Origin: Rickettsiaceae bacterium
GTDB taxonomy: Bacteria; Pseudomonadota; Alphaproteobacteria; Rickettsiales; Rickettsiaceae
Direction: 5' to 3'
Length of the DNA stretch: 46,044 nt
Assembly (NCBI GenBank): GCA_027485375.1
Contig: JAIXRE010000097.1
Location: 1 to 46,044, forward strand
Positions 939 through 38,953 of the stretch are shown in pieces. The position numbers were made by a program, and so were the translations under genes. The notes beneath the pieces were generated by a model. It made no database searches. It had not been told where the DNA came from and was given only the letters and a program-made list of their open reading frames with translations. How positions within the stretch are numbered: the first letter of the stretch is position 1; every line of letters starts with the position of its first letter.

Positions 939-1472
939 TTAGTTTTTCTTGCCTTCTTTTCTTTGGACATATTGCCCTTGACGCTTAATACCTTTACCTT
1001 TATAAGGCTCTGGTGGTCTTTGCTTTACAATAACGGCAACGAACTGTCCTAATTTTTCTTTATCCGCACTATGTAAAGTTATAGCATTTTGTTTTGGTGC
1101 TGTTACTGTAATATTTTGCGGTATTTCAATTTTGGTATTATGACTTTTACCAAGAGTAAGGTTTAAATACCCAGACTTCACAGCAGCCCTATATCCAACA
1201 CCATTAACTTCTAACTCTTGAGTAAATCCCTCTTGAACACCCTTGACCATGCCATTGATAATGCTTCTCGCAGTACCCCACATTGATCTGGCTTCCTTAC
1301 TTTTACTTAAAGGCTGAACAACAACTTGATTATCTTGCAAGTTAATTGAAATAGCCCCAGCAAAAGTTTTTGACAAAGAACCTTTAGGTCCTTCAACCTT
1401 AACACTCAAACCATCCACTTGCATTTTAACTGTTTCAGGAATGTTTATAGGTAATTTTCCAACACGTGACAT
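939..1472 (-). CDS. rplF: 50S ribosomal protein L6
   Basis: The MSRVGKLPI... start is the canonical L6 N-terminus, and the operon position fits. Confidence 0.97.
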
Positions 1473-1481
1473 CTATTTATC

Positions 1482-1883
1482 CTAAAATACTTTACAAATT
1501 ACTTCACCACCACAACCAAGCTTGTGAGCTTCTCTATCCGACATAACACCCCTAGAAGTGGATAAAATATAAATACCCATATTATTATAATAGCCCTTCA
1601 GGGTGCTAATGGAAGAGTAAATCCTCTTGCCTGGCTTAGAAACTTTATGTATCTCGCATATCGCAGCTTTACCGCTAGAAGAGTACTTTAACCCAACATT
1701 TATTTCAGAGATGTTAGATTTAAGCTCGGTTACTTGATAATCTTTTATATACCCTTCACCTTTTAATACGTCTAAAACCGCACATTTCATTTTTGAATAA
1801 GGAAGCGATACAGTAATCAACTTACTTTTTTGACCATTCCTAATTCTAGTTAGCATATCTGCTATTGTATCTGTCATTGACAT
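1482..1883 (-). CDS. rpsH: 30S ribosomal protein S8
   Basis: Contains the [14 protein letters not shown] motif typical of S8. Confidence 0.97.
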
Positions 1884-1900
1884 AAAATAAACCTAATAAT

Positions 1901-2206
1901 TTACCAACTCGCCTTTATTAAACCAGGGATTACACCCTTGCCACTTAAGTCTCTTAACATATTCCTTGATAACCCAAACTTTCTATACACACCCCTTGGT
2001 CTACCAGTTAGCTCACACCTATTTCTAATGCGGTTACGCGCTGAATTCCTAGGTAATTTTGCTAAAGCCATTACAAGATTAAATCTTTCGTCTAGAGGCA
2101 GATCTTTATCGTAAATCTTAGCTTTTAGCGCTGCTCTCTTATTGTTCAAACTACTTGCTAATTTTTTTCTTCTATTATTTTTTTGAATTGAACTTACTTT
2201 AGCCAT
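1901..2206 (-). CDS. rpsN: 30S ribosomal protein S14 (long form, 101 aa)
   Basis: Ends in ...[25 protein letters not shown]...SW and lies between L5 and S8. Confidence 0.96.
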
Positions 2207-2223
2207 TATATTCTCTAAAAAAA

Positions 2224-2766
2224 TTAATTATAAAAAGGCAAATTGAATCCAGAAAGCAATAACTTCGCTTCAGCATCTGTTTTAGCACTTGTTACAAATG
2301 TTATATCCATACCACGTAGCACGTCTATTTTATCGTAATTAATCTCTGGAAAAACTATTTGCTCCTTAATACCAAATGTAAAGTTACCTCTACCGTCAAA
2401 GCTTTTACTAGAAAGCCCTTTAAATTCCTTAACACGAGGAAGAGCGACAATAACTAGCCTTTCAATAAAGTCGTACATTCTATCTTTACGCAAAGTAACT
2501 TTACAACCAATCTTCATATCTTCACGTAACTTAAATGTCGCAATTGACTTCTTAGCGCTCGTAACAACTGGCTTCTGTCCAGAGATCAAAGTTAAATCAT
2601 TAACGGCATTATTGATAACTTTTGAATCTAGAACAGACTCACCAACACCCATGTTTATAACTATCTTCTCTAACCTAGGAATTTCATGCATGTTTGTATA
2701 CGCGAACTCCTTTTGCAATTCTTGTTTAATCTTTTGCAGATATAATTCTTTAAATCTTAGTAGCAT
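2224..2766 (-). CDS. rplE: 50S ribosomal protein L5
   Basis: Contains [15 protein letters not shown] and ...[13 protein letters not shown], as L5 proteins do. Confidence 0.97.
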
Positions 2767-3092
2767 TATTTAGCCTCACCTATGATTTCTCCAGATTTTT
2801 TTGCAAACCTGACTTTTAAACCATTTTCTAAAATTTTATAACCAACCTTTGTTGCTTCACCTGTTTTCGGGTCAAGATGCGCGATATTGGATATGTTTAT
2901 TGGCAGCTCTTTCTGGATGATACCACCTTCGCTATCTTTACTAGCTTTTGTATGTTTTTTTACTACATTTACACCAGAAACAACAGCTTTATTTTCACTT
3001 GGAAAAACCTTTAAAATCTTTCCTTTTTGCCCCTTATTTTTACCAGTAACGACGATTACTTCGTCTCCCGTTTTTACCTTTAACTTGACCAT
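2766..3092 (-). CDS. rplX: 50S ribosomal protein L24
   Basis: Contains [27 protein letters not shown] trimmed the start to the internal ATG because the ORF-track start at 3122 would overlap rplN by 29 nt. Confidence 0.93.
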
Positions 3093-3093
3093 T

Positions 3094-3462
3094 TTAGAGC
3101 ACCTCTTCAGCAAGCGAAACAATTTTAACGAATTTTTTAGTTCTTAACTCTCTAGTAACTGGACCAAAAACTCTAGTACCAATAGGCTCACCTTGCTTGT
3201 TTAGTAGAACCACAGCATTAGAGTCAAATTTTATAGTACTACCATCTTGCCTTCGCACGCCAGTTCTTGTTCTAACTATTAAAGCTCTGTGAACATCACC
3301 TTTTTTTACTTTGCTGTTAGGAATAGCTTCTCTTATCGAAACAACTATAACATCACCAAGTCCAGCAATCATATGATGCGATCCACCCAACACCTTGATA
3401 CACATCACTTTTTTCGCACCAGAGTTATCTGCAACATTTAAGATGCTTTGCATCTGAATCAT
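3094..3462 (-). CDS. rplN: 50S ribosomal protein L14
   Basis: The [18 protein letters not shown] start is canonical for L14. Confidence 0.97.
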
Positions 3463-3502
3463 AACTTTACTTCCACTTAAATCAGAGAATTAATAACGCA
3501 CT

Positions 3503-3531
3503 AAAATATACAATATAAACTAAAAAGTCAA
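3503..3531 (-). promoter_or_regulatory. Candidate sigma-70 promoter for the spc block (TTGACT-N17-TATTTT on the minus strand)
   Basis: The minus strand reads TTGACTttttagtttatattgtaTATTTT in the 72-nt rpsQ-rplN gap, which is the classical S10/spc operon boundary. This is a pattern match only. Confidence 0.35.
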
Positions 3532-3534
3532 AGG

Positions 3535-3765
3535 TTAATTATCTAAAACTACCCAACTCTTTGTTTTAGATATAGGCTTACTTTCTTCAATCTTTACGCT
3601 ATCGCCTTCTTTATAACTATTTTGAGGATCATGCGCTGCATATTTTTTAGAAACCCTTACTATTTTTTTGTATACAGGATGCATAAACCTACGTTCTACC
3701 TTTACAGTAACAGTTTTGTCTGTTTTTGCGCTTACCACAACACCTTGCAATACTCTTTTTGGCAT
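3535..3765 (-). CDS. rpsQ: 30S ribosomal protein S17
   Basis: Starts [27 protein letters not shown]. Confidence 0.96.
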
Positions 3766-3769
3766 ATGT

Positions 3770-3982
3770 TTAAACTCCTATCTTTGATCTTTTTGTTAGC
3801 TCAGTTTTAACACGAGCAATGTTTTTCTTAACCAAAGAAAATCTGCTAGTATTTTTTAACTCACCAAGCACGGTTTGAAACCTTAGATTAAAAAGCTCTT
3901 TTTTAAGAAACACTAGCTTTTCATGCAGTTGTTCTATAGTTTGGCTTGATAAATCTTTTATCACAAGTTCTGATTTACTCAT
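3770..3982 (-). CDS. rpmC: 50S ribosomal protein L29
   Basis: 70-aa helical protein containing LRFQ...GELKNTSR, located between L16 and S17. Confidence 0.93.
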
Positions 3983-9846: not shown

Positions 9847-9922
<76 letters not shown>

Positions 9923-9955: not shown

Positions 9956-10041
9956 TGGTGGAGGGAGAAGGATTTGAACCTTCGAACGCATACGCGGGCA
10001 GATTTACAGTCTGCTGCCATTGACCACTCGGCCACCCCTCC
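9956..10041 (-). tRNA. tRNA-Tyr (anticodon GUA), long variable arm
   Basis: The reverse complement GGAGGGGTGGCCGAGTGGTC...CAGACTGTAAATCTG...GGTTCAAATCCTTCTCCCTCCACCA has anticodon loop CTGTAAA. It is 86 nt with a class II variable arm. Confidence 0.9.
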
Positions 10042-11050: not shown

Positions 11051-13852
11051 TTAGGATACAGCTTGAGGCAAAGTAAAAACAAATTTTGCTCCCTTTACTC
11101 CATCACTTTCTGCCTCAATTTCTCCACCATGCATTTCAATAGCTTTCTTGCATAAAGCAAGCCCCACGCCGCGACCGCCAGCTGGAGTTTTAGTTTTAGA
11201 GCTAACCGCAAAACTACGGAAAATATCGTACAATTCTGTTTTTGGAATCCCAACACCCTCATCTTTAACGCTAAACTCCACTAGGCTCTCTAAATTATGC
11301 AATTCCAAAGTAATAGTACCCTTTTTACTATATTGAATAGCATTAACTATTAAATTATCTAATGTAGATTGAATGTAATGCCTATCGCATAGAACAACTA
11401 CACCATCCTCTACATTTGTTATAAATTCTAAAAATTTGCCATTTAAATATAACTTTTTGCAATAATCTAACCTTTCATAAACCAACTCACTCAAATTGAC
11501 AGGCTGCTTATTCAAAGGACTATTTGTATTATTAAGCTTAGAGAGACCAATCATATTATTAACTAAGCTACTTAGTCGCTCTGAGCTTTTTGCAATCTCG
11601 CCTAGACCTTGATATATCTGGTCCTTAGAGAGTTTGTCATAATTTTCATAAAGAACTTGCCCCATACTTGTAATACCCGTAATAGGCGTATGAGCCTCAT
11701 GCTCTAAATTACGAATAAACTCGTTTTTTATCTGCAACGACCTCTCCATTTCTTCGTCTTTATCTTCTATCATCTCCCCTAAATGTTCAGCTTTTTGTTC
11801 AGTTAATTCTTGATATTCTTGCTTTGGTTTGATGAAAGCTATTAAGACGCTACTAACTAAGAGCAAAGAATACATTATTTTAAACTGCAAATTTCCTATC
11901 TCTGCTAAGTTATCAATTCCAGCATACCATTTGAAAAAATGAACACTTGCCAGCGCGCCGGTAATAATAATAAACAAGGCAGCTTGCCATCTTAGCAACA
12001 TTGCTATTACTACTAAATTTAGGATAAAAATCATCAATTGGAATTGAGCAAAATTGCTTACCGCAACTAAAAGCCCAGCTACAAATACTAAAATAGAGAA
12101 AATGCCTAAAGTCCAAATTACAGCGATAAACTTTTCACTCCTGAATGTTGGTGGCCAAGCTGGATAAGTCAAAAATATTGTCGAGGAAATTAATACAAAA
12201 TGGTATATGTATTCCAGTAGCACCTCATAATGTTCCCTGATCTCCACGGGCAGTGAATACATAGTAGAGAAAATAGAAACAATACAGAATACGCCAAAGA
12301 AAGAATATGTCGCCTCTTGCCGCGGAATATTACGTTGGCAAAATGCGATAAAACTAAAATCTTTTATCGCTTTTACAAAATTATTAATAGCCCTTTTGCG
12401 ATTCCTTCTAACCTCCTCTAGCGGTTTTTTGTCCTTGATACCAACCCAGCCCCCTGGTTGACGCAGGATATAATGACTACCAAAGAAGAAAATCATATTA
12501 CCAAGGATACCTGGTATCACACTCTCTATATCAGTAATATCCTCAAAATAAGTCTGCCATACTAAAACCGTAACAAAACCACCTATCATGCCTATTAAAA
12601 CTGATTTAACACTGGTACGAAAGCCAAATATAGCAAAAAGCAACGGGACACTCACTATAGGTTCATAAAAGCTAGCAACTATGAATAATAAATCTAATAG
12701 ATTTTTCGTATGAAAAGCCAAAGCAAAAGCTAGAAGACCTATAATAAGGGAGCATATGTACGAAAATGGTAAATCGTATCTTGCATGCCATTTTATACCC
12801 AAAGATTGACGTAAATCGTATGAAAAGTTTATGCTAGCAGCGTTAATATGAGAATCTGCCGTTGACATTACCATAGTCATTATTCCTATAGCAATTAGCC
12901 CCTTAAATCCTACATAAGTATAATTATTAATCATATATGCGAATAAGTTACCCGGCTCAACATTAGGATTGTTAGAAAGCAATAAGATACCTATCCAAGC
13001 AAACATAATGCATATAGATAAGTACACTAAGGTAGCTATAAGGTATGAATTAGATACTTGTGTAGTATCTTTAGCCATAGATATTCTTTGAAATATTGCT
13101 GGACCTATTGAAGGAAATAAAAAATAAAGACATATACTAAACCCTCCCCAAAATTTAGGATGGTCAATGTTAAATAATTGCTGGTAATCAAATATGTTAT
13201 TATTAGATATCGTATTAAATACAATATGAGGGTCGCTAAAAGTACCCCAAATTATTAGAGTAATTATTGGAATTATAGTACCAAAGGTAAAAAACTGAAT
13301 CACATCAGTAAAAGTTACCGCCCTGATGCCGCCAAAAGTCGAGTAAAGTATAACCACTACGGCACTTGCTAGAGTAGCATAAAAGCTCGAAACCCCAAAA
13401 AATATTGATAATATAGTAGCAGAGACTTTAAACTGCGCTGCTACCCTGCCTATAGAATAAATGGTGCTAGATAAAGACGTTATAAATCTTGCTTTTTGAC
13501 CATATAAACTACCCATAGCATCAGCTACAGATAGCATACCTAAAAACTCTCCCATTCTTGGAGAAATAAAATAGCAAATTAGCAGTCCTTCGATCACTCC
13601 GCCCAGCATAACTGGTATTATATAAAACAAGCCATTAGAGTAGACCTGTGATATATCGCTAAAAAACATGCTACCGCTTATCCAAGTAGCAACTAGAGTA
13701 GCGACAATGGTACCAGTAGAGAAATCTCTATTACCTATTGCATATTCACGAATGTTTTTTATACCGCGGCTATAAAATAAACCAATAGCAAGGTTTACTG
13801 CAAGAAATCCAACGAAAATGGACATGTCTATGTTCAAGTTAAAAGGCATCAT
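11051..13852 (-). CDS. Sodium:solute symporter (SSS/SLC5)-like domain fused to extra TM helices and a HisKA/HATPase histidine kinase
   Basis: The N-terminal ~470 aa is polytopic and PutP/SSS-like. About 6 further hydrophobic helices span aa ~515-680. These are followed by a coiled coil, an H-box FIRNLEHEAHTPITGI, an N-box DNLIVNAIQYS, G1 VKDEGVGIP and G2 GGRGVGLALCK. There is no receiver domain. A GGAGGA sequence abuts the start. Confidence 0.8.
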   Translation of the reverse strand: MMPFNLNIDMSIFVGFLAVNLAIGLFYSRGIKNIREYAIGNRDFSTGTIVATLVATWISGSMFFSDISQVYSNGLFYIIPVMLGGVIEGLLICYFISPRMGEFLGMLSVADAMGSLYGQKARFITSLSSTIYSIGRVAAQFKVSATILSIFFGVSSFYATLASAVVVILYSTFGGIRAVTFTDVIQFFTFGTIIPIITLIIWGTFSDPHIVFNTISNNNIFDYQQLFNIDHPKFWGGFSICLYFLFPSIGPAIFQRISMAKDTTQVSNSYLIATLVYLSICIMFAWIGILLLSNNPNVEPGNLFAYMINNYTYVGFKGLIAIGIMTMVMSTADSHINAASINFSYDLRQSLGIKWHARYDLPFSYICSLIIGLLAFALAFHTKNLLDLLFIVASFYEPIVSVPLLFAIFGFRTSVKSVLIGMIGGFVTVLVWQTYFEDITDIESVIPGILGNMIFFFGSHYILRQPGGWVGIKDKKPLEEVRRNRKRAINNFVKAIKDFSFIAFCQRNIPRQEATYSFFGVFCIVSIFSTMYSLPVEIREHYEVLLEYIYHFVLISSTIFLTYPAWPPTFRSEKFIAVIWTLGIFSILVFVAGLLVAVSNFAQFQLMIFILNLVVIAMLLRWQAALFIIITGALASVHFFKWYAGIDNLAEIGNLQFKIMYSLLLVSSVLIAFIKPKQEYQELTEQKAEHLGEMIEDKDEEMERSLQIKNEFIRNLEHEAHTPITGITSMGQVLYENYDKLSKDQIYQGLGEIAKSSERLSSLVNNMIGLSKLNNTNSPLNKQPVNLSELVYERLDYCKKLYLNGKFLEFITNVEDGVVVLCDRHYIQSTLDNLIVNAIQYSKKGTITLELHNLESLVEFSVKDEGVGIPKTELYDIFRSFAVSSKTKTPAGGRGVGLALCKKAIEMHGGEIEAESDGVKGAKFVFTLPQAVS

Positions 13853-14109: not shown

Positions 14110-15096
14110 ATGATTATCAAATTGCTAAAAATCAAATATACCTTTTTAATTATACTTAGTGTTTTAACTATAAGCGCAATAAACATTTGCGGCTTGTATC
14201 TTGTGATGACTGGAAACCTAGAAAGCTCCACTAATGTTTTGATTGAGCAAAGACTCCCTTTGAAAAATATAGCGGATAAACTTGAGCAAAATGATGTTAT
14301 CAAACATCCTAAATTATTTTGGTTTTTAGCTAAATTATACTCATTCAAATACCCACTCAAAAGCGGCGAGTACTTATTTACTGCCAAAATATCCCCCCTG
14401 CAGGTGTTAAATATTTTAGCTACAGGAAAATCAGTAGTGCATAAATTAGTCATCCCTGAAGGCAGCACGGTAAACGAAATTATAAATAAAATTAATGACC
14501 AGCAGCTCTTGCTAGGCGAAATCAAAGGAACAATTCCTGAAGGATTCCTGATGCCTTCAACCTATTTCTTTTCATACGGTGACCAAAGAGAGCAAATTAT
14601 CGACCAAATGCGTAAAAATATGTCTTTAGCGCTAGATGAGATAATGCTCAAACTACCGGCAAATTCTCCTTTAAAAACAAGGCTAGAAGTCCTAACGTTA
14701 GCCTCAATTATTGAAAAAGAAGCTGCTTGCGATGCAGAGCGCCCTATAGTTGCCGCTGTTTTTCTAAACCGCCTTAAAAAAAATATGAAGTTGCAAGCAG
14801 ATCCTACCACAATTTACGCCCTCACTAATGGCAAATTTAAATTAAATCGTCCTTTAACTAAAAAAGATTTAGCCCTAGAGTCGCCTTACAATACTTACTT
14901 TGCCCCTGCCCTGCCTCCAGCGCCAATAGCATGCCCCGGTCTTAAGTCCTTAGAGTCTGTGGCGTCACCAGCGAAAAGTAATGCCTTATATTTTGTCGTT
15001 AATGGTCAAGGTGGACATCACTTTTCCTCAAGCCTAAGTGAACATAATAATCACGTTAAGGCGTATAGAGCGCAGGTCAAAGGTCATGTAGATTAG
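14110..15096 (+). CDS. mltG: Endolytic murein transglycosylase MltG (YceG family)
   Basis: Has an N-terminal TM anchor, then LASIIEKEA, RPIVAAVFLNRLKKNMKLQADPT, SPYNTY and LPPAPIACPG, which are typical YceG motifs. Confidence 0.88.
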   Translation: MIIKLLKIKYTFLIILSVLTISAINICGLYLVMTGNLESSTNVLIEQRLPLKNIADKLEQNDVIKHPKLFWFLAKLYSFKYPLKSGEYLFTAKISPLQVLNILATGKSVVHKLVIPEGSTVNEIINKINDQQLLLGEIKGTIPEGFLMPSTYFFSYGDQREQIIDQMRKNMSLALDEIMLKLPANSPLKTRLEVLTLASIIEKEAACDAERPIVAAVFLNRLKKNMKLQADPTTIYALTNGKFKLNRPLTKKDLALESPYNTYFAPALPPAPIACPGLKSLESVASPAKSNALYFVVNGQGGHHFSSSLSEHNNHVKAYRAQVKGHVD

Positions 15097-15097
15097 C

Positions 15098-18000
15098 CTA
15101 CTTAAGAGTATAATCTATCTGATAAGCGATTCCTCCATATTGAACATTTGCATAATATATTACAAGGGTATTAGTGCCCTGTACTAAATATGGTAAGATA
15201 TTTATGTCAGAAAAACTAAGGATGCCAGGTACAACAGGAAAAGTAGGCACAGTAGATAAACTATTAAAGTTATATGGACCGCTCATTATTTTACGAGAAT
15301 TTAATGTAATGAGCATAAAATCTTTGTACAATAACTGAGAGATTTTAAAAGAAGATAAAGCAGCTATACTTGGAATAGTTATATTGATAATTGCATTATT
15401 TGTACCGTTATATTGTATTTCGCTTAGCCAATATGAATTATTCATATTAAATGATATTCCTCCATTTTTACCATTAATATAGGTGGCTGGAGGAGTTGTT
15501 GGCGTATAGGTATTCGTTACAGAAAATGTTATTGCGCTATAAACACACTGCAACGCTGGATCTAGCGCTTCAAAAGAGGCGTTTCTAGCCTCTGCATTTA
15601 CCAAACAGTAACGTTGTAATGGGCTGTTAGTAGTTAAACTATATCCTGCAGGACAAGTGCCAGTAGCAAGCTCTCCTGCTATAGTTTCTGGCCACAAAGC
15701 ATTACCATTAGCTGTTGCAATAGTAGTGATAGCACTACATACTAGCTGCGGCACGCTAGCACATAGGTTAAGCTCTATAGAAGTTTTGTCTCTAACGCCA
15801 GATGCATATATATCATAACCACCAATCATTGAATAATGTTTATCGTCTGGAATAACATTCCCAAAGCTAGCAGAAGGGTCAAGACGATTATTTGGATCAA
15901 GCTGCATATCACAAACTGCTGCATTTGAACTACTACCATAACAATAATTATGTGGACACCTATAAATATTGATGCCGCCACTACCATTAATACCAGCTAT
16001 GCTGTCAACTTGGTTGCAATCAGCAACACTCGCAGGACAAAGGCTTAAATTTGGATATAGTTGTTGCTTACTCTTAAATAACGAGCAATCAACAATATTG
16101 GCATTTGCCAATCTACTAAGCACACAATTTTCTTTGTTATACCTGCTACAATGAGCCAAATTAGGAAAATTCAAACAAGCATACGTTCCCCCTTTAACAT
16201 ATTTATTATCCTTATACTCTAAACCATATAGGTATACAGCATTAGTGGGTGAGCCTGAACTATTTATTGGCGCAGCATTATTTTTATATACGCCGTACGT
16301 AGTTAGCGGGTTTGTAGAATAGGCTCCAGAAAATGGTGACGTAATAAAAGTATCATCTGTAACAAAAGAGGTAAAATCATAACCAGCTAGGTTGACTAAA
16401 GCGTTATTTGTATTTAGATTGCTTACTGATAAGGCTTCAATTAAGGCACTAGTAGAATGGTTTCTAACAGACATAGAGGCAATAAACCGTGGCGTGAAAT
16501 AATTGTTAGTACATGTTATACCAACTACAGGGCTATTTGGATCGCACTCAAGAATCATTGGTTTAGGCACAGCTTGCCTCGCCTGGCAGCCTACAAGCCT
16601 CGCTCCTTCATAAACGCAAATTTTAGATTGATCTTGGTCTGTGGTAGGTGTGCGAACGATACTTGCTGTAAATGAACGCTGCGTTCCTACCACATCTTTC
16701 ACAGTAACCTGCTGCGTGAGGTCAGCAATATCTGTTGGTTGCTGTATTGATGGAAATTCAATAAATGTATCAACAAAATTACCAGCGTTAATACCCCAAA
16801 TTTTTTGGCAGTTATTATTTACAGCACTAGCGGTGCAATCTGGTACTTTGCAACTATCTGGCACTTGCACTATACATTCTCCGCTAGAATTTGGTACGCA
16901 AGGAGCTATGACCTCGTTGCATGGAGTTTTCATATCGACAAAATAACCTTTTGGTACACTAGTGCTACCAGTATTTGAGGAATATACAACCCTAAAGCCA
17001 TTAATACAACCATCTGGAGGATTCTCTCTGCTACAAAGCATCGTATTATTAACGCAAGGTCCAGTTCCAGTAGATCTTGAACATAGAGGTATAATATCTT
17101 GTCTATTAGTCAATGCATGGAGGTTACGGGCTGAGTTAAAGAGATCAAAATTTGATAAGGTAATGCAAGTATCAGTTTGCGCTGGATTTTCTCCATGCAT
17201 GCAGATAGGAATAAAATTATCAAAAGTTATCCTTATGCTATTATGGATAAAATTATTCACAGTTGTAGAAGAAACTACGCAGTTATTTGTTGATGTAGAA
17301 AGTGCGTAGTCATTACTAGCCTCTTGCTGGCATATTAACTGAGTTGTAGGAGGTGGAGAGAAAGGTCTAATAGTCGGACAAAATTGCGGCGGGTAAGGAC
17401 CAACTGGTATCTCGACACAACCTAAATGATACTTATCGCTTGTTGGGTCAAGTACTACCCTATTAAACTGTCCAAATTCCTCTAAAATCATAACAAACGC
17501 TTCACCAACATACTCAAAAGCATCGCTAATAGTATCGAATATACCCTTAGTAATATCTTGATTTGCGTCAGGAATAGCAGATATTATTGATCCTATCGCA
17601 TCTGATATTGAACCAGCGCCACCAGCCAGCGATTTTATAACGCTTATTAGCAACTTGGCTATTGGATGTATTCCACCTGTATTATGTATAGGTTGCTTGT
17701 CTGGATTGTAATCCATTAGATCGATTACAAATTGATTGCTATCAGAAGCTGCTGACATAGCTGCTGTAACAATAAGATTTATAGGGTTTATTAGAGCAAT
17801 AGTATCCATCAAAGAAGGATCCATATAGGCGCATAATTTTGGTCGATCTAAATAAACTGGTTGTCCGTCTGTGCCCATAAAAGGTTCATCGTCTACCTCT
17901 GCTCCTTCTCTTGTCAAATGTTTACGAAAAGTATAACCAGGATCAGCTGGTATGTCTTGTTCTGCATCTCCTGGCACTGCTAATCTAGCACATACCCTAT

Positions 18001-18640
18001 TAAGTGGTATACCCCAAGGTGACGCCCAATTAATGCACTCACCCTCCCACCCAAGGGTTTCTGAACTAGACCAACAACCAAAAACATTGCAAGTTTGGTT
18101 ACGAACGCGAATTTTTGGTAACGAATAACTAGTTTCAGCAGTGCTTTCAGCACAAGTATGAACCATATCTATACCTATATTAGGATAATTGAATCTATCC
18201 TTAACAAGGCACGTGTAGTTATGTCTTCCATCTGACTTATCCCATGGCGGGCAATATTTATTTTCTAGTCCCCTATTAATAGGAGGCTCACCTTCTCGCC
18301 AATACTCTAGCCTATCTGTAGCGTCTGTTGGATTGCAAAAGCTGCGGATAAAATCAGTAGGAGGAATTTGAGGTTGATATGTATTACCAACTCGACTAGA
18401 CTCAACCCTTGACGAAGCCTCACAGCATAATGGAAGAATTAGCGCAAAACTTATGCTTAATAGACTTCCTGCGAAACTCGCTAAAGAGAAGGAATTTGCA
18501 GGAGGTGCGGAGCGCAAAACCGCAGCGTACTTAAATGTACGTGAGGATTTGAGCACTGGATCGACGCACAAATTACTCTCTATAGTAGAGTTTCGCATGA
18601 GGTCTAATATACAAACTACAAAAGAGCATAGAAACTTCAC
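15098..18640 (-). CDS. Large cysteine-rich secreted protein of unknown family (hypothetical; start codon uncertain)
   Basis: Uninterrupted 1180-codon ORF. It has a signal-like hydrophobic segment ...SLLSISFALILPLCCEASS and about 43 Cys after it by my count. GTG 18640 lies 7 nt after the virB4 stop; ATG 18598 is an alternative start. I recognise no family. Confidence 0.7.
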   Translation of the reverse strand: MKFLCSFVVCILDLMRNSTIESNLCVDPVLKSSRTFKYAAVLRSAPPANSFSLASFAGSLLSISFALILPLCCEASSRVESSRVGNTYQPQIPPTDFIRSFCNPTDATDRLEYWREGEPPINRGLENKYCPPWDKSDGRHNYTCLVKDRFNYPNIGIDMVHTCAESTAETSYSLPKIRVRNQTCNVFGCWSSSETLGWEGECINWASPWGIPLNRVCARLAVPGDAEQDIPADPGYTFRKHLTREGAEVDDEPFMGTDGQPVYLDRPKLCAYMDPSLMDTIALINPINLIVTAAMSAASDSNQFVIDLMDYNPDKQPIHNTGGIHPIAKLLISVIKSLAGGAGSISDAIGSIISAIPDANQDITKGIFDTISDAFEYVGEAFVMILEEFGQFNRVVLDPTSDKYHLGCVEIPVGPYPPQFCPTIRPFSPPPTTQLICQQEASNDYALSTSTNNCVVSSTTVNNFIHNSIRITFDNFIPICMHGENPAQTDTCITLSNFDLFNSARNLHALTNRQDIIPLCSRSTGTGPCVNNTMLCSRENPPDGCINGFRVVYSSNTGSTSVPKGYFVDMKTPCNEVIAPCVPNSSGECIVQVPDSCKVPDCTASAVNNNCQKIWGINAGNFVDTFIEFPSIQQPTDIADLTQQVTVKDVVGTQRSFTASIVRTPTTDQDQSKICVYEGARLVGCQARQAVPKPMILECDPNSPVVGITCTNNYFTPRFIASMSVRNHSTSALIEALSVSNLNTNNALVNLAGYDFTSFVTDDTFITSPFSGAYSTNPLTTYGVYKNNAAPINSSGSPTNAVYLYGLEYKDNKYVKGGTYACLNFPNLAHCSRYNKENCVLSRLANANIVDCSLFKSKQQLYPNLSLCPASVADCNQVDSIAGINGSGGINIYRCPHNYCYGSSSNAAVCDMQLDPNNRLDPSASFGNVIPDDKHYSMIGGYDIYASGVRDKTSIELNLCASVPQLVCSAITTIATANGNALWPETIAGELATGTCPAGYSLTTNSPLQRYCLVNAEARNASFEALDPALQCVYSAITFSVTNTYTPTTPPATYINGKNGGISFNMNNSYWLSEIQYNGTNNAIINITIPSIAALSSFKISQLLYKDFMLITLNSRKIMSGPYNFNSLSTVPTFPVVPGILSFSDINILPYLVQGTNTLVIYYANVQYGGIAYQIDYTLK

Positions 18641-18647
18641 TGTTGAC

Positions 18648-21098
18648 CTATTTTTCTAAAGCTTTATGTAATGGAACAATCCAATTATCAGGGTGTCCTG
18701 GATATTGTTTGAGGATTTCTTGATAAATCTTAAATGTATCAGCATCACTGACTAATATACTTAGCATGCCTGTAAACCCTCCTATACTTAGTTCAGCAAC
18801 AATTGCTTGCTCTCCTTGCTTAACTAAGAAACTCCTTGAAAGTGGCTTTAATTCAGTAAATTTTGCTATTTCTGCTTTAGTAAGCCCCAGTGTCTTTTCT
18901 AATTTTTCAAGTTTTACCTCGGCTGGCATAATAATTTTAGTATCTCCCAGCCTAGACCAACTTTGGCAAATTTTTAACTCTTGCTCTTGAAAATTAGTGA
19001 GGTTAATATTACCCACCACCACGCCGTTATGAGAGCTTAAACTCTTGAAAATTGCTGTTATAGGTTCTGCAAAATAATTTTGGTCAAGTAACTTATCAAT
19101 ATTATCGATAGCAAGTATTTTAGGCTTTTGATCTAGAATGCTAAGCTGCCTTGCTAGTACGTATATTATTGCAAATTTTACGCTATTATTTAAGTTTAGC
19201 TGCTTTGTAAACTTATCAAGTAGTTTTTTATCCTCAGGATAAAACTGCTTTATAAAATCTTCATTAGAGAAATTGCTTAAGTTAACCCCTAAAACTTTGC
19301 TTGGTGATAGATCAAAGCTACTGTTACCATCAAATAGCCCGTGATATAAACCACTTTCTGCAAAAACTACAAGCCTTGCTTTTATAGCCTCTCCAGCTGC
19401 GCCAGTAAAATCATTGCTTTTGATTATTTTTGACAAAGTACGATCTTTAAAATCAATCGCAAAGATAGTTTTTGTTAATTCTTCCAAATATTCTAATTCA
19501 GGCGCAGTAAGCTCCTCGGCATAATGGTTGCAGATTATTTTTAGAAACTCAGAGGCAAATTGCCTATTTTCTTTAGTATCGTCGCATAAAAATGGATTGT
19601 AGGTTGTTTGAGGCTCTTTGACCCAGTGACCTTCTAGCGCTTCAATAAAAATTTGCGACGTATTGTCATTAGCAATATAAACAATAGTTGGATCGTATTT
19701 AGTGGACTCAGAAATTAGAAAATTAGTGACTGCAGTTTTACCTACTCCTTCTATGCCAAAAATCAAACTATTGCCGCTTTCGCTACCTGCGTGGAAATTC
19801 ATAAAATACGGCGTACCTCTTTCACTCCTGAGGATAGTTATCGCTCTGCCCCATTGACTGTTTTGATAGCCTGTAGGAAAATTATGCAAGGACGCTAGGG
19901 CAGCAACATTATTGATGATATTTGGCGTCATCCTGCGCAAATAGCTAAAGTTAGCAGGTAGCTGCGCCCAAAATGTTTGCTCTAGATTTATATCTTCCCT
20001 AACGTGAACAATACCAATTTCTGATAACTTCCTTGAGGCGTACGCAACTTCTTTATCAAGTTTATCTACATCCTCGCTAATTATAGAAATAGAAATTTGC
20101 TGCGTACAAAATTGATTATACGATTCGGTTTGACTCAGGTCATTCCCTAATATTTTATTATACCCCTTAGCCACGCCAAGCGATTTATCTCCACTTACCT
20201 CTATTATATAAGCTTGGTCGCTAAAGCTTGAGGCGATAGTTTCTTCGTCCACGAAATAAAACACCTCTGTTACCACCATTTCTACAGGTATTTGCAAGAA
20301 AATATCCACAGATTCAGTAGAAACTTCTTGGTACTCCTTGATAGACAAGATAGCTATAAAATTTTTACTTTCTCCGCTTACAACCTCTATCTTATCACCA
20401 CCTATAGCATACTCGCATGACGCCAGAGAATCTGAAAGGTCTGCTAGCGGTAATAAGGGCTCGCTGGTATTTAGATGTATTAGTTTGTGATATAAAGCTA
20501 GGAGTTCAGATAGCACCTCGTCTTCTTTGAATTTTATTCCCAGTTTTGTTGCGCCGTACTCAGATAAATCTTCTAGTATTTTATCCACAACAGTATTTAG
20601 ATATTTTGAAGATTCGTCAAAATATTCTTGATGAGAATTTTCGACATGGCTGGCAAAAAGAGAATGTACAAAACTAGTGAGATTATTCATCTTTATATCT
20701 CTTGTGTCATAGACTATCGAAATATACAAAGTATTGACAAATTTATCTGACCAATAATTTTTCTGCCGCCATAACTCATGCAGGTTAGCAGGGAATAATT
20801 TTTTGTATGGCGTCATATCGTCTAAGTTAGTTTTATGACGAATAGTATGCACCCAAAAAGCTAACTGGTTACTATTAACATTTTTTTGGATAGCTTGGCG
20901 TACGACTTCTCGTAAATTAAACAACTTACTGCTAATTTGCTCAGCATTAATGCCATTAATTTGAATTATCTGTAGCATTTGCCCATTTTTTGTAAGCAAA
21001 GTGTTTTCATCATAGTGACAAGCGATAGGTATATAAGCTTCTGCATAGGAGTTAAATAGATCTTTATCTGCTTTGCGTGAATTACTAAGTGTTAGCAC
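18648..21098 (-). CDS. virB4: Type IV secretion ATPase VirB4 paralogue (degenerate Walker B; rvhB4-II-like)
   Basis: 816 aa with a CagE/TrbE/VirB4-type N-terminus (IPIACHYDENTLLTKNGQMLQIIQINGI) and Walker A GIEGVGKT. The Walker B position reads ILAIDNIDKLLD. A strong SD (AAGGAGAGG) precedes GTG 21098. Confidence 0.85.
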   Translation of the reverse strand: MLTLSNSRKADKDLFNSYAEAYIPIACHYDENTLLTKNGQMLQIIQINGINAEQISSKLFNLREVVRQAIQKNVNSNQLAFWVHTIRHKTNLDDMTPYKKLFPANLHELWRQKNYWSDKFVNTLYISIVYDTRDIKMNNLTSFVHSLFASHVENSHQEYFDESSKYLNTVVDKILEDLSEYGATKLGIKFKEDEVLSELLALYHKLIHLNTSEPLLPLADLSDSLASCEYAIGGDKIEVVSGESKNFIAILSIKEYQEVSTESVDIFLQIPVEMVVTEVFYFVDEETIASSFSDQAYIIEVSGDKSLGVAKGYNKILGNDLSQTESYNQFCTQQISISIISEDVDKLDKEVAYASRKLSEIGIVHVREDINLEQTFWAQLPANFSYLRRMTPNIINNVAALASLHNFPTGYQNSQWGRAITILRSERGTPYFMNFHAGSESGNSLIFGIEGVGKTAVTNFLISESTKYDPTIVYIANDNTSQIFIEALEGHWVKEPQTTYNPFLCDDTKENRQFASEFLKIICNHYAEELTAPELEYLEELTKTIFAIDFKDRTLSKIIKSNDFTGAAGEAIKARLVVFAESGLYHGLFDGNSSFDLSPSKVLGVNLSNFSNEDFIKQFYPEDKKLLDKFTKQLNLNNSVKFAIIYVLARQLSILDQKPKILAIDNIDKLLDQNYFAEPITAIFKSLSSHNGVVVGNINLTNFQEQELKICQSWSRLGDTKIIMPAEVKLEKLEKTLGLTKAEIAKFTELKPLSRSFLVKQGEQAIVAELSIGGFTGMLSILVSDADTFKIYQEILKQYPGHPDNWIVPLHKALEK

Positions 21099-22538: not shown

Positions 22539-22613
22539 TGGAGCGGGTGAAGGGATTCGAACCCTCGACTTCGACCTTGGCAAGGTAGCGCTCTACCCCT
22601 GAGCTACACCCGC
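22539..22613 (-). tRNA. tRNA-Gly (anticodon GCC)
   Basis: The reverse complement is GCGGGTGTAGCTCAGGGGTAGAGCGCTACCTTGCCAAGGTCGAAGTCGAGGGTTCGAATCCCTTCACCCGCTCCA. The anticodon loop is TTGCCAA and CCA is encoded. Confidence 0.9.
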
Positions 22614-23931: not shown

Positions 23932-24660
23932 ATGCGCTTATATTCCTTGCAGGAACATTTGCTAGAACTGAAAACACGAATAATTAGAATACTCTTAGTG
24001 TTCGTCATTTTTTGTGGTATTAGTTATTACTTTAGCAAAGAAATTTATGCTATTGCTCTAAATCCTTTAGTTAGTTTAGAGCAATGGCAGCATAGGAACA
24101 TAATTTATACAGGTCTTACTGAAGCATTTTTTACTTATTTAAAGCTTGCGGCTTTTACTAGCACTTTGGTAATCATACCATTTATTGCGATAGAGGTTTA
24201 CTTGTTTATTAAACCAGCCCTTTATCCAAATGAACAAAAACTTGCTGCTTATATACTGCTTATGGCGCCATTGTTATTCTGGCTTGGCAGTATTTTTGTC
24301 TATTATTTTGTTATGCCAAAAGCTTGGCTGTTTTTTTTAAGCTTTGAAAATAGTGTAGGCAGCTCAGCTATTACTCTAGAACCAAGAATTAGCGAATATT
24401 TAACCTTAGTTATGCAACTTATTATTGCTTTTGGGGTAGCTTTTCAGTTACCAATTGTGATACTAATATTACATATACTTAAGATAATAACTATAGAGCA
24501 ATTAAAAGACAAAAGACGTTTAGCTGTGGTTATTAACTTCATCATTGCTGCCATATTAACGCCGCCAGATGTCATAAGCCAGTTTGCGCTTGCAATCCCT
24601 ATGGTTTTATTATATGAAACTGCTATTATTATGTGTAAATTTACGACAAACAGAGGGTAA
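23932..24660 (+). CDS. tatC: Twin-arginine translocase subunit TatC
   Basis: 242 aa with 6 TM helices. Starts [13 protein letters not shown] and contains TPPDVISQ. Confidence 0.93.
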
Positions 24661-24662
24661 TC

Positions 24663-25940
24663 ATGTTGGATATTAAATGGATAAGAGAAAATCAAGCCGA
24701 ATTCGACAAATTACTGGTTAAACGCGGTATAGAACCAATGTCTGAAGAGATAAGCGCTTTAGACGAAGAAAAACGGCAGCTTACTACTTTAGTACAGCAG
24801 TTCCAGCACGCGAAAAAGAAGAAATCTAAATCTCTTGGCGAAATGAAAACCCGTTCAGGTAAAGAGTTTGATGAAGTAAGACGTGATGTAGAGCACATTA
24901 ATCAAAAACTAGACGAATTAATAGCTAAGTTAGATGAAAGCAACAAGTTACAAGAAATATTAGATACTTTGCCAAACTTATTAGCTCCAGAAGTGCCTTA
25001 TGGCACTGATGAAAGCATGAATAAGATGGTAAGAAGCTGGGGAGAGGCAAAGATTGACCCTTCTGCTAAAGAGCATTTTGAGCTTGGTGAACAGCTTGGT
25101 ATGATGGAGTTCACTCAAACTGCCAAAATTTCAGGCAGTAGGTTTGTGACCCTTAAAGCTGAACTGGCTAAGCTAGAGCGTGCGCTAGTTAGTTTTATGA
25201 TAGATATGCACACAACAGAGCTTGGTTACCAAGAATTATCACCTCCTTATTTAGTAAGACCGCAAGCAGCATATAACGTTGGTCAGTTACCAAAATTCGC
25301 TGATGATTCTTTCTTAACTACAACAGATTATCGCTTAATTTCCACCGGTGAAGTGCCTCTTACTAACATGGTAGCAGATAGCATTCTCGCAAGAGAAGCT
25401 TTGCCTATACGTTACGTTGCGCATACCGCTTGTTTCAGGTCAGAAGCAGGTAGTGCTGGTAGAGATTCTAGGGGCATGATTAGGATGCATCAATTTAGCA
25501 AGGTTGAATTAGTATCTATCACTACTCCAGAAGAGTCAGAAAATGAACATGAGTTTATCACTAACGCTGCAGAAGAGTTGCTAAAAAGGCTAGGTTTGCC
25601 ATACAGGGTAATGTTGCTTTGTAGTGGAGATACTGGTTTTCAGTCTAAAAAGACTTATGACATCGAAGTATGGTTACCTGGTCAAAAGCAATATAGAGAA
25701 ATTTCTAGCTGTTCAAATTGTGGAGATTTCCAAGCAAGACGCCTGAAAGCAAGGTATAAAGAATTTGGCGGCAATGAGAATATTTTTGTTCACACATTAA
25801 ATGGCTCTGCCCTGCCAATAGGTAGAACAATTATTGCTATTTTAGAAAATTATCAAAATGCAGACGGTTCTATTACCGTGCCAGAAGTTTTAGTAAGCTA
25901 TATGGGTGGTATAGATAAAATTTATCCTATAAAGAGCTAA
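24663..25940 (+). CDS. serS: Seryl-tRNA synthetase
   Basis: Starts [10 protein letters not shown], has an N-terminal coiled coil, and carries class II motifs ([30 protein letters not shown]). Confidence 0.97.

Positions 25941-38876: not shown

Positions 38877-38953
<77 letters not shown>

Follow-up and report, generated by a model that had tools for sequence, protein, structure and literature searches.

A large cysteine-rich, predicted exported protein encoded next to a virB4 paralogue in Rickettsiaceae: a candidate accessory or contact protein of the rvh type IV secretion system

The window analysed here is a stretch of 46,044 nucleotides from a Rickettsiaceae bacterium (GenBank assembly GCA_027485375.1, contig JAIXRE010000097.1, positions 1 to 46,044 of the forward strand). 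On its minus strand it carries an open reading frame (ORF) for a large cysteine-rich protein, directly downstream of a paralogue of virB4, a gene of type IV secretion systems (T4SSs). This ORF (15098-18640, 1180 codons plus stop) is intact from its GTG start codon at 18640; in the public protein set the same gene is started at the ATG at 18598 (protein P0001, 1166 aa). The mltG gene (14110-15096, plus strand; MltG/YceG, PF02618, 260 bits) is convergent with it, the two stop codons being 1 nt apart. No terminator-like hairpin was found on the minus strand by a pattern scan of both junctions of the cysteine-rich gene. An original prediction, made from the sequence alone, had described both start codons, the gap of 7 nt after the virB4 stop codon and the junction with mltG without a terminator, and all were recovered. 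The ORF is far beyond chance: it runs for 1180 codons in DNA of 36-39% G+C, it aligns with its homologues from end to end and it keeps 37 of the 41 Cys columns that are conserved in its family. Because the gap to virB4 measures 7 nt, and given that it holds no terminator, co-transcription of the two genes in the window is plausible.

The association of the two genes was assessed in loci that had been retrieved using only motifs of the large protein, and 65 species loci with enough upstream DNA were counted. A virB4 gene was present directly upstream and on the same strand in 63 of these informative loci, and also in 5/5 further distinct contigs (L001, L003/L004, L006, L080 and L081). The last two carry the most divergent members of the family (29% identity, 1562 and 1860 aa), and there the stop and start codons of the gene pair overlap. 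The other neighbours seen in the window rarely recurred in 80 loci: mltG in none, the Elm1-like gene in two and the symporter-kinase gene in two. The gene pair is a conserved unit, a two-gene module with rvhB4-II (see below) whose surroundings change. The tight link to a stand-alone virB4 paralogue, first proposed from the window, is therefore borne out across loci with differing flanks.

The upstream partner was recognized as a VirB4 protein by PF03135 (113 bits, cut-off 21) and by TIGR00929 (537 bits, E 1e-160, below the curated cut-off of 643). Its Walker A motif (GIEGVGKT) is intact. Its Walker B motif reads ILAIDN, with D-N in place of the canonical D-E, and D-N is also found in the partners from R. 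australis, Tisiphia, L001 and L002. Most partners lack the Walker B Glu and read D-N, D-S or N-P there, and the VirB4 proteins of Agrobacterium, IncX4 and Sphingomonas have D-E. Among the most divergent loci, the L081 partner (134-2470) keeps D-E and the L080 partner (1409-3901) has lost the Glu; L081 may represent a stage before decay of the ATPase site. No vir gene was found within about 10 kb on either side of the window virB4, and neither virB3 nor virB6 is adjacent to it. In L080, three small genes upstream of virB4 were not recognizable as virB2 or virB3.

In Rickettsia, the partner virB4 follows tatC-serS, as does MC1_RS06165 of R. parkeri. The other VirB4 of R. parkeri, MC1_RS00740, heads the consecutively numbered type IV secretion genes MC1_RS00745-00765, which were taken to be the rvhB6 cluster. 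The paralogue called virB4b or rvhB4-II has been described as ATPase-defective and set apart from other vir genes (PMC2653234, PMC4676284). The partner virB4 of the window is accordingly best described as a gene of the RvhB4-II type, a probable orthology based on synteny (tatC-serS-virB4) with the Rickettsia loci. In 21 loci of Rickettsia and Tisiphia, the tatC-serS genes immediately precede rvhB4-II and share its strand. Their position in the window is 23932-25940 on the opposite (plus) strand, 3-5 kb from virB4, from which they are separated by the Elm1-like gene, a tRNA gene, a flavoprotein gene and an RDD-family gene. This arrangement indicates a local inversion in the window, with the virB4/cysteine-rich pair kept together. 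The R. parkeri orthologue by position and size, MC1_RS06170, is expressed, with a baseMean of ~10,300 (PMC13203960 supplements).

Homologues of the cysteine-rich protein were collected by several searches. A word-indexed search returned 16 homologues, and an exhaustive search 168 representative clusters at E<=1e-3; 72 loci were obtained from species-representative genomes, nearly all labelled Rickettsiaceae, and a search seeded with the R. australis orthologue gave 86 proteins. The earlier statement that the protein is of no recognizable family is thus correct for curated libraries and does not extend to sequence databases, where more than 160 homologue clusters exist. The sources are Rickettsia (typhus, canadensis, transitional and spotted-fever groups), 'Ca. 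Tisiphia', 'Ca. Megaera', 'Ca. Sarmatiella' and many metagenome-assembled genomes (MAGs); a few short contigs with family members bear other bin names. Full-length orthologues are retained in reduced Rickettsia genomes, including those of R. typhi and R. canadensis, and vertical inheritance of the gene extends to the smallest Rickettsia genomes. Two copies are present in MAG Tobar2m-G10 (L069 and L075).

Family members are annotated as 'hypothetical protein', apart from two UniRef cluster names (P0050 and P0052): 'Conjugal transfer protein TraN' and 'Acyl-ACP-UDP-N-acetylglucosamine O-acyltransferase' (LpxA-type). The second name, given to the R. conorii orthologue, was rejected as domain support for it is absent. 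Rickettsia members listed as hypothetical proteins include AAL03756 of R. conorii (which we take, by accession arithmetic, to be locus RC1218), AAY62102 of R. felis and A1C_06085 of R. akari; RT0772 of R. typhi and MC1_RS06170 of R. parkeri belong to the same family by position. These are true homologues: identity is 32-40% over >90% of the length, and both the Cys pattern and the place after rvhB4-II are shared. The window copy is nevertheless divergent, and no database sequence is more than 50% identical to it. It differs from the Rickettsia proteins by the lack of an N-terminal C-x4-C-x-C motif, by a private insertion with four Cys and by a repeat in its signal peptide. No account of the protein or of its link with rvhB4-II was found in the open-access literature.

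A classical signal peptide of the pattern MLKKYLL…A|SxW was detected in 87/95 homologues. Because a Sec-type signal is combined with many conserved Cys, the protein is predicted to be exported by Sec, to act outside the cytoplasm and to be heavily disulfide-bonded. The window protein contains 46 Cys in total; the count of ~43 given in the original prediction applies to the region after the signal, which holds 43. A single strongly hydrophobic 19-residue stretch was found, at residues ~50-75. The protein is therefore not VirB6-like, as had been anticipated, and the expectation that it is not an autotransporter agrees with the lack of a match to PF03797.

The four-part order proposed for the mature region was broadly retained and agrees with secondary-structure prediction, but the Cys-free, beta-rich C-terminus that follows C1018 measures ~148 aa and not ~170. 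The N-terminal beta domain is the most conserved segment (58% mean pairwise identity) and holds invariant Cys together with the motifs PADPGYT and PKLCxYxDP. At 18320-18355 (minus strand) the C-x4-C-x-C motif typical of the family N-terminus has been lost from the window protein, CLxNPCNCG being changed to SFCNPTDA. The following segment, flanked by the conserved motifs HPIA and GQxNRxV, lies in a Cys-free stretch between C256 and C394 (P0001 numbering) that is predicted to be helical. About 25 conserved Cys columns are found in the middle region. The four extra Cys of the insertion PCNEVIAPCVPNSSGECIVQVPDSCKVPDC occupy alignment columns in which just 1% of family members have a Cys. Conservation is lowest in the C-terminal tail (32% mean identity vs 44-58% for the core segments); a tail of at least 100 aa is present in 70/95 homologues and absent in 22. 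No internal repeats were revealed by self-comparison of the sequence.

Relatives outside the family were searched for at the level of sequence and fold. Pfam and NCBIfam were searched with the window protein, with 16 members and with several long or Rickettsia members, and returned sub-threshold HRM matches only. There was no match in PHROGs, nothing meaningful in a PDB sequence search with two profiles and no tblastn match in 72,556 plasmids. The HRM matches fall on the small disulfide module (E 0.0015-0.08, the first value being the best in the family); the four members with listed scores reached 13.8-15.8 bits, vs a cut-off of 26.2. One homologue, P0065, has a precomputed PF02793 match. The last ~60 residues of the core gave its only recurrent local Foldseek match, to the sushi domain of IL-15Ralpha (prob 0.9, E 0.2-0.5), in agreement with the HRM matches.

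Two AlphaFold models were used for fold comparison. The full-length model, built with 16 sequences, was mediocre, with a predicted local distance difference test score (pLDDT) of 67, and its Foldseek matches were limited to local ones with jelly rolls in the C-terminal domain: the N-terminal sugar-binding domain of GH2, PA14, CBM35 and the Eph ligand-binding domain. These matches are weak (prob up to 0.99, E 0.008-0.07, target-normalized TM-scores 0.1-0.4, model pLDDT there 64-89). The jelly-roll resemblance noted earlier for the C-terminus is consistent with this local signal, but no Pfam match to the domain was obtained. The model of the 939-residue conserved core, built with 96 sequences, was confident (pLDDT 84.3, predicted TM-score 0.65), and no PDB or BFVD entry matched it at E<=1e-3. 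On sequence and modelled structure, the conserved core would appear to be without detectable relatives. Because this core of 939 residues could be modelled with confidence and still resembles no known fold, it deserves structural attention for its own sake.

The N-terminus of the window protein is unusual. A signal-type hydrophobic segment exists there, as originally described, but its first part (…SFSLASFAGSLLSIS) is encoded by an inserted palindromic repeat and is not native. In the exhaustive protein search, three unrelated proteins matched residues ~10-64 only, with 61-79% identity. The repeat peptide of ~53 residues is inserted in P0176 (79% identical), which, judging from its motifs, looks like a TilS enzyme, and is also found in two short proteins, P0189 and P0191. 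The DNA of the element matches its own reverse complement (70% over 156 nt), and it is predicted to fold much more stably than shuffled sequence (z = -5.5). Partial copies occur in Sarmatiella and Tisiphia loci (L058, L048 and L010). When residues 1-11 are joined to residues 65-75, a 22-residue signal peptide resembling those of the homologues is obtained. We infer that the native signal peptide was split by the repeat and is cleaved after CEA. A start codon downstream of the repeat was considered and rejected: in-frame ATG, GTG and TTG codons are absent between the repeat and the conserved domain, and the repeat must for this reason be translated within the precursor. Its position within the cleavable signal region means that the mature protein would be untouched.

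The 159-nt element appears to behave as described for Rickettsia palindromic elements (RPEs). Like these, it is palindromic, belongs to the class of about 100-160 nt, keeps the frame open and has its peptide also within an unrelated protein, the TilS-like one. It differs in its position inside a cleavable signal peptide. This insertion is a new detail, unseen in the original prediction. The coordinates of all features are collected in Table 1.

Table 1. Features of the cysteine-rich gene and its upstream partner in the window. Core residues refer to the 939-residue conserved-core model.
Feature	Position	Strand	Details
Cys-rich protein, predicted exported, whole ORF	15098..18640	-	1180 codons plus stop
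C-terminal domain, Cys-free, beta-rich, jelly-roll-like, variable	15101..15538	-	local Foldseek matches
Small disulfide module, sushi/HRM-like	15539..15805	-	core residues 851-939
Middle region, Cys-rich, mostly beta	15806..17440	-	core residues 306-850; pLDDT mostly 85-97
Window-specific 4-Cys insertion PCNEVIAPCVPNSSGECIVQVPDSCKVPDC	16835..16924	-	gaps there in most homologues
Amphipathic helical segment, Cys-free	17441..17815	-	core residues 181-305; five predicted helices, pLDDT 51-74
N-terminal Cys/Trp-rich beta domain, conserved	17816..18355	-	core residues 1-180; pLDDT 79-93
Signal peptide second half, likely native, FALILPLCCEA	18416..18448	-	residues 65-75; part of sole strongly hydrophobic segment
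RPE-like palindromic element, in frame	18449..18607	-	159 nt, multiple of three; residues 12-64
Signal peptide first half, likely native	18608..18640	-	residues 1-11, (M)KFLCSFVVCI; upstream of repeat
virB4 stop to GTG gap, 7 nt	18641..18647	-	without minus-strand terminator-like site
virB4, probably rvhB4-II type, upstream partner	18648..21098	-	816 aa

Some other features of the loci were recorded. Two antisense ORFs lie inside the large gene on the plus strand (16641-16946 and 16962-17309, 101 aa and 115 aa) and are probably due to chance. Beyond mltG, a sodium:solute symporter-histidine kinase fusion of 933 aa is encoded at 11051-13852 (minus strand), and a similar gene is found near the module in L001. 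The window contains four tRNA genes, at 9850-9920, 9959-10041 and 22542-22613 on the minus strand and at 38877-38950 on the plus strand; these are the sole Rfam matches at the gathering threshold. In the Sarmatiella locus (L058, 5896-9021), genes for a HAD hydrolase and a TLC transporter stand upstream in place of virB4. In MAG SGMAG-19 (L074, 5851-11250), the neighbours of a 1799-aa version are trcR, metG and a Kdo transferase gene.

The original prediction had pointed to TraN, the cysteine-rich contact protein of F-type systems, and this relationship was tested directly. PF06986 and all 13 NCBIfam TraN models (TIGR02750 and PRK12355 being among the models considered) were run against the window protein and three Rickettsia orthologues, and none gave a match at E<=10; F-plasmid TraN scored 268-1459 bits with the same models. 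In profile-profile comparison with hhalign, the probability was 0.12% for profile A1 against F-plasmid TraN and 0.17% for A2 (96 sequences) against A3 (6 TraN sequences), the TraN profile being shallow and enterobacterial only. With no TraN among the fold matches either, identity with TraN was rejected. That the protein is nonetheless a very divergent TraN is highly improbable. In its favour are the UniRef cluster name of one Rickettsia orthologue and the shared general features: both are large, Sec-exported, Cys-rich and genetically tied to a T4SS, a signal and Cys not being specific to TraN. The idea of a variable region that specifies contact also fits the window family. Against it, besides the silent models, the window family is encoded on chromosomes, passes vertically and was not found on plasmids, and its neighbours are rvhB4-II and housekeeping genes, with no F-type tra genes nearby.

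The position of the gene invites a comparison with VirB5. The gene that immediately follows virB4 in pTi bears the annotation virB5. In the IncX4 plasmid, the gene in this place encodes 238 aa and has no more specific annotation than 'type IV secretion system protein'; it was taken to be the VirB5 equivalent. The rvh system has been reported to be without VirB5 (PMC8035066, PMC10732058). Like VirB5/TraC, the window protein is encoded immediately downstream of virB4, in the virB5 slot of P-type (MPF_T) operons, has a Sec signal, is predicted to be extracytoplasmic and contains a Cys-free helical segment of about 125 residues. The differences are considerable. VirB5/TraC is a helical bundle of ~220 residues, whereas the window protein has 1100-1180 residues, is five times larger and mostly beta, and has about 41 conserved Cys; its only helical part is the insert of ~125 residues, modelled with low confidence. 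Its family is moreover paired with a degenerate VirB4 paralogue and not with a virB3-virB4-I-virB6 cluster. The hhalign probability was 0.04% against pTi VirB5 and 0.43% against the IncX4 gene, and homology with VirB5 was rejected on these values (<0.5%) and on the lack of a Pfam match. The window protein is VirB5-like by gene position and TraN-like by chemistry. It is a member of neither family, as the sequence features that define them were searched for in it and not found.

These data lead us to favour, tentatively, a protein exported by Sec that acts outside the cytoplasm as an accessory of the rvh T4SS, encoded in the virB5 slot and probably serving in contact or adhesion. Export by Sec would be followed by oxidative folding in the periplasm. 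The conserved N-terminal core might dock onto the rvh apparatus, and the variable, sushi-like and lectin-like C-terminal end might contact a ligand on the host or the envelope. The protein would in this way be a functional stand-in for a missing component of the VirB5 or TraN type, and not a homologue of either. To our knowledge, Rickettsia has no type II secretion system, and a Sec-exported soluble protein would therefore stay in the periplasm unless the T4SS handles it. In Neorickettsia, virB4-2 is linked to copies of the virB2 pilin gene (PMC2764437), and extracellular T4SS parts are thus found near this paralogue in another family too. A classical T4SS effector, close to the very large secreted effector of the original prediction, is unlikely because the protein carries a Sec signal and is rich in predicted disulfides.

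Several observations weigh against an accessory of the rvh T4SS. The gene is found without an adjacent virB4 in two lineages, 'Ca. Sarmatiella mevalonica' (L058) and the Rickettsiaceae MAG SGMAG-19 (L074). RNA-seq data of R. parkeri analysed with Rockhopper place MC1_RS06170 in a separate two-gene operon, starting 135 nt after rvhB4-II, and rvhB4-II (MC1_RS06165) in an operon with serS and two transporter genes; MC1_RS06165 and MC1_RS06170 also fall into different temporal expression clusters (5 and 4). VirB4 is cytoplasmic or associated with the inner membrane and the cysteine-rich protein is extracytoplasmic, so that it is not evident how the two would touch directly. The protein showed neither an outer-membrane anchor nor a known way of crossing the outer membrane, similarity to VirB5 or TraN is absent, and the domain-level fold matches are weak (E of at least 0.008). 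Finally, the family has so far been found only in Rickettsiaceae, in searches that did not explicitly cover Orientia or the Rickettsiales of other families.

Alternatively, the protein could remain in the periplasm, without surface exposure, as a structural or scaffolding partner of a divergent rvh-II set (RvhB4-II, RvhB8-II and RvhB9-II) that stabilizes or gates the channel, and we regard this as unlikely. Such a role would suit a protein with a Sec signal and with no outer-membrane beta-signal, lipobox or autotransporter domain, for which the periplasm is the default destination where a type II system is lacking. It would also suit the conserved linkage to rvhB4-II, and a jelly-roll domain could bind peptidoglycan or the glycans of lipopolysaccharide. 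A functional link among the Rvh-II proteins has indeed been proposed (PMC4676284). Neither rvhB8-II nor rvhB9-II is linked to the gene, however, and a C-terminal domain that is variable and sometimes absent, next to a sushi-like module, is more typical of ligand-binding surface proteins. The separation of the two genes in the operon prediction and expression clusters of R. parkeri, and their uncoupling in two lineages, are what would be expected of a secreted or envelope protein that has nothing to do with type IV secretion, kept beside rvhB4-II only by frozen gene order or shared regulation. The same can be said of the lack of homology to any T4SS component and of the published rvh inventories, in which the gene was never counted (PMC2653234, PMC13203960). 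The pair has nevertheless outlived rearrangements that changed every other neighbour, and in L080 and L081, where protein identity has dropped to 29%, it is still intact and the stop codon of one gene overlaps the start codon of the other. Neither observation would be predicted from passive synteny, and both argue against this explanation; we give it slightly less credit than the periplasmic scaffold.

Pertussis toxin is released across the outer membrane by the Ptl system. A comparable two-step route, with export by Sec to the periplasm, disulfide folding and release through the rvh channel as a toxin or host-binding factor, would agree with the signal peptide and conserved Cys of the protein, with its linkage to a T4SS gene and with a lectin-like C-terminal domain. 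It is improbable all the same. No enzymatic or toxin domain was detected with Pfam and NCBIfam, strict vertical conservation that includes non-pathogenic symbionts better fits a structural role, and the gene is absent among the published RvhD4 interactors described in PMC11077975. A bolder form of the accessory model favoured above, which we consider possible but rather doubtful, is that the protein is the missing extracellular rvh component of the Rickettsiaceae. As such it would replace VirB5 without being homologous to it, and together with RvhB4-II, which would be catalytically dead, and perhaps RvhB8-II and RvhB9-II, it would form a host-contact structure of a fold unseen in solved structures.

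The rvh T4SS has a central place in the interplay of Rickettsia and related bacteria with host cells. Two points have been puzzling since 2009: the role of the degenerate duplicates RvhB4-II, RvhB8-II and RvhB9-II, and the means by which an rvh system without VirB5 contacts its target. A large, predicted exported protein is kept beside rvhB4-II across the family, including the human pathogens R. typhi, R. rickettsii and R. conorii. It would be a T4SS accessory or contact protein with an unrelated fold that has so far found no match. The interpretation offered in the original prediction has partial support: the link with virB4 is real, and the function is proposed from it and from the predicted properties of the protein. 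If surface exposed, it would be a conserved antigen candidate. The protein is a concrete candidate that bears on both puzzles of the rvh system and that can be tested with the existing genetics of R. parkeri.

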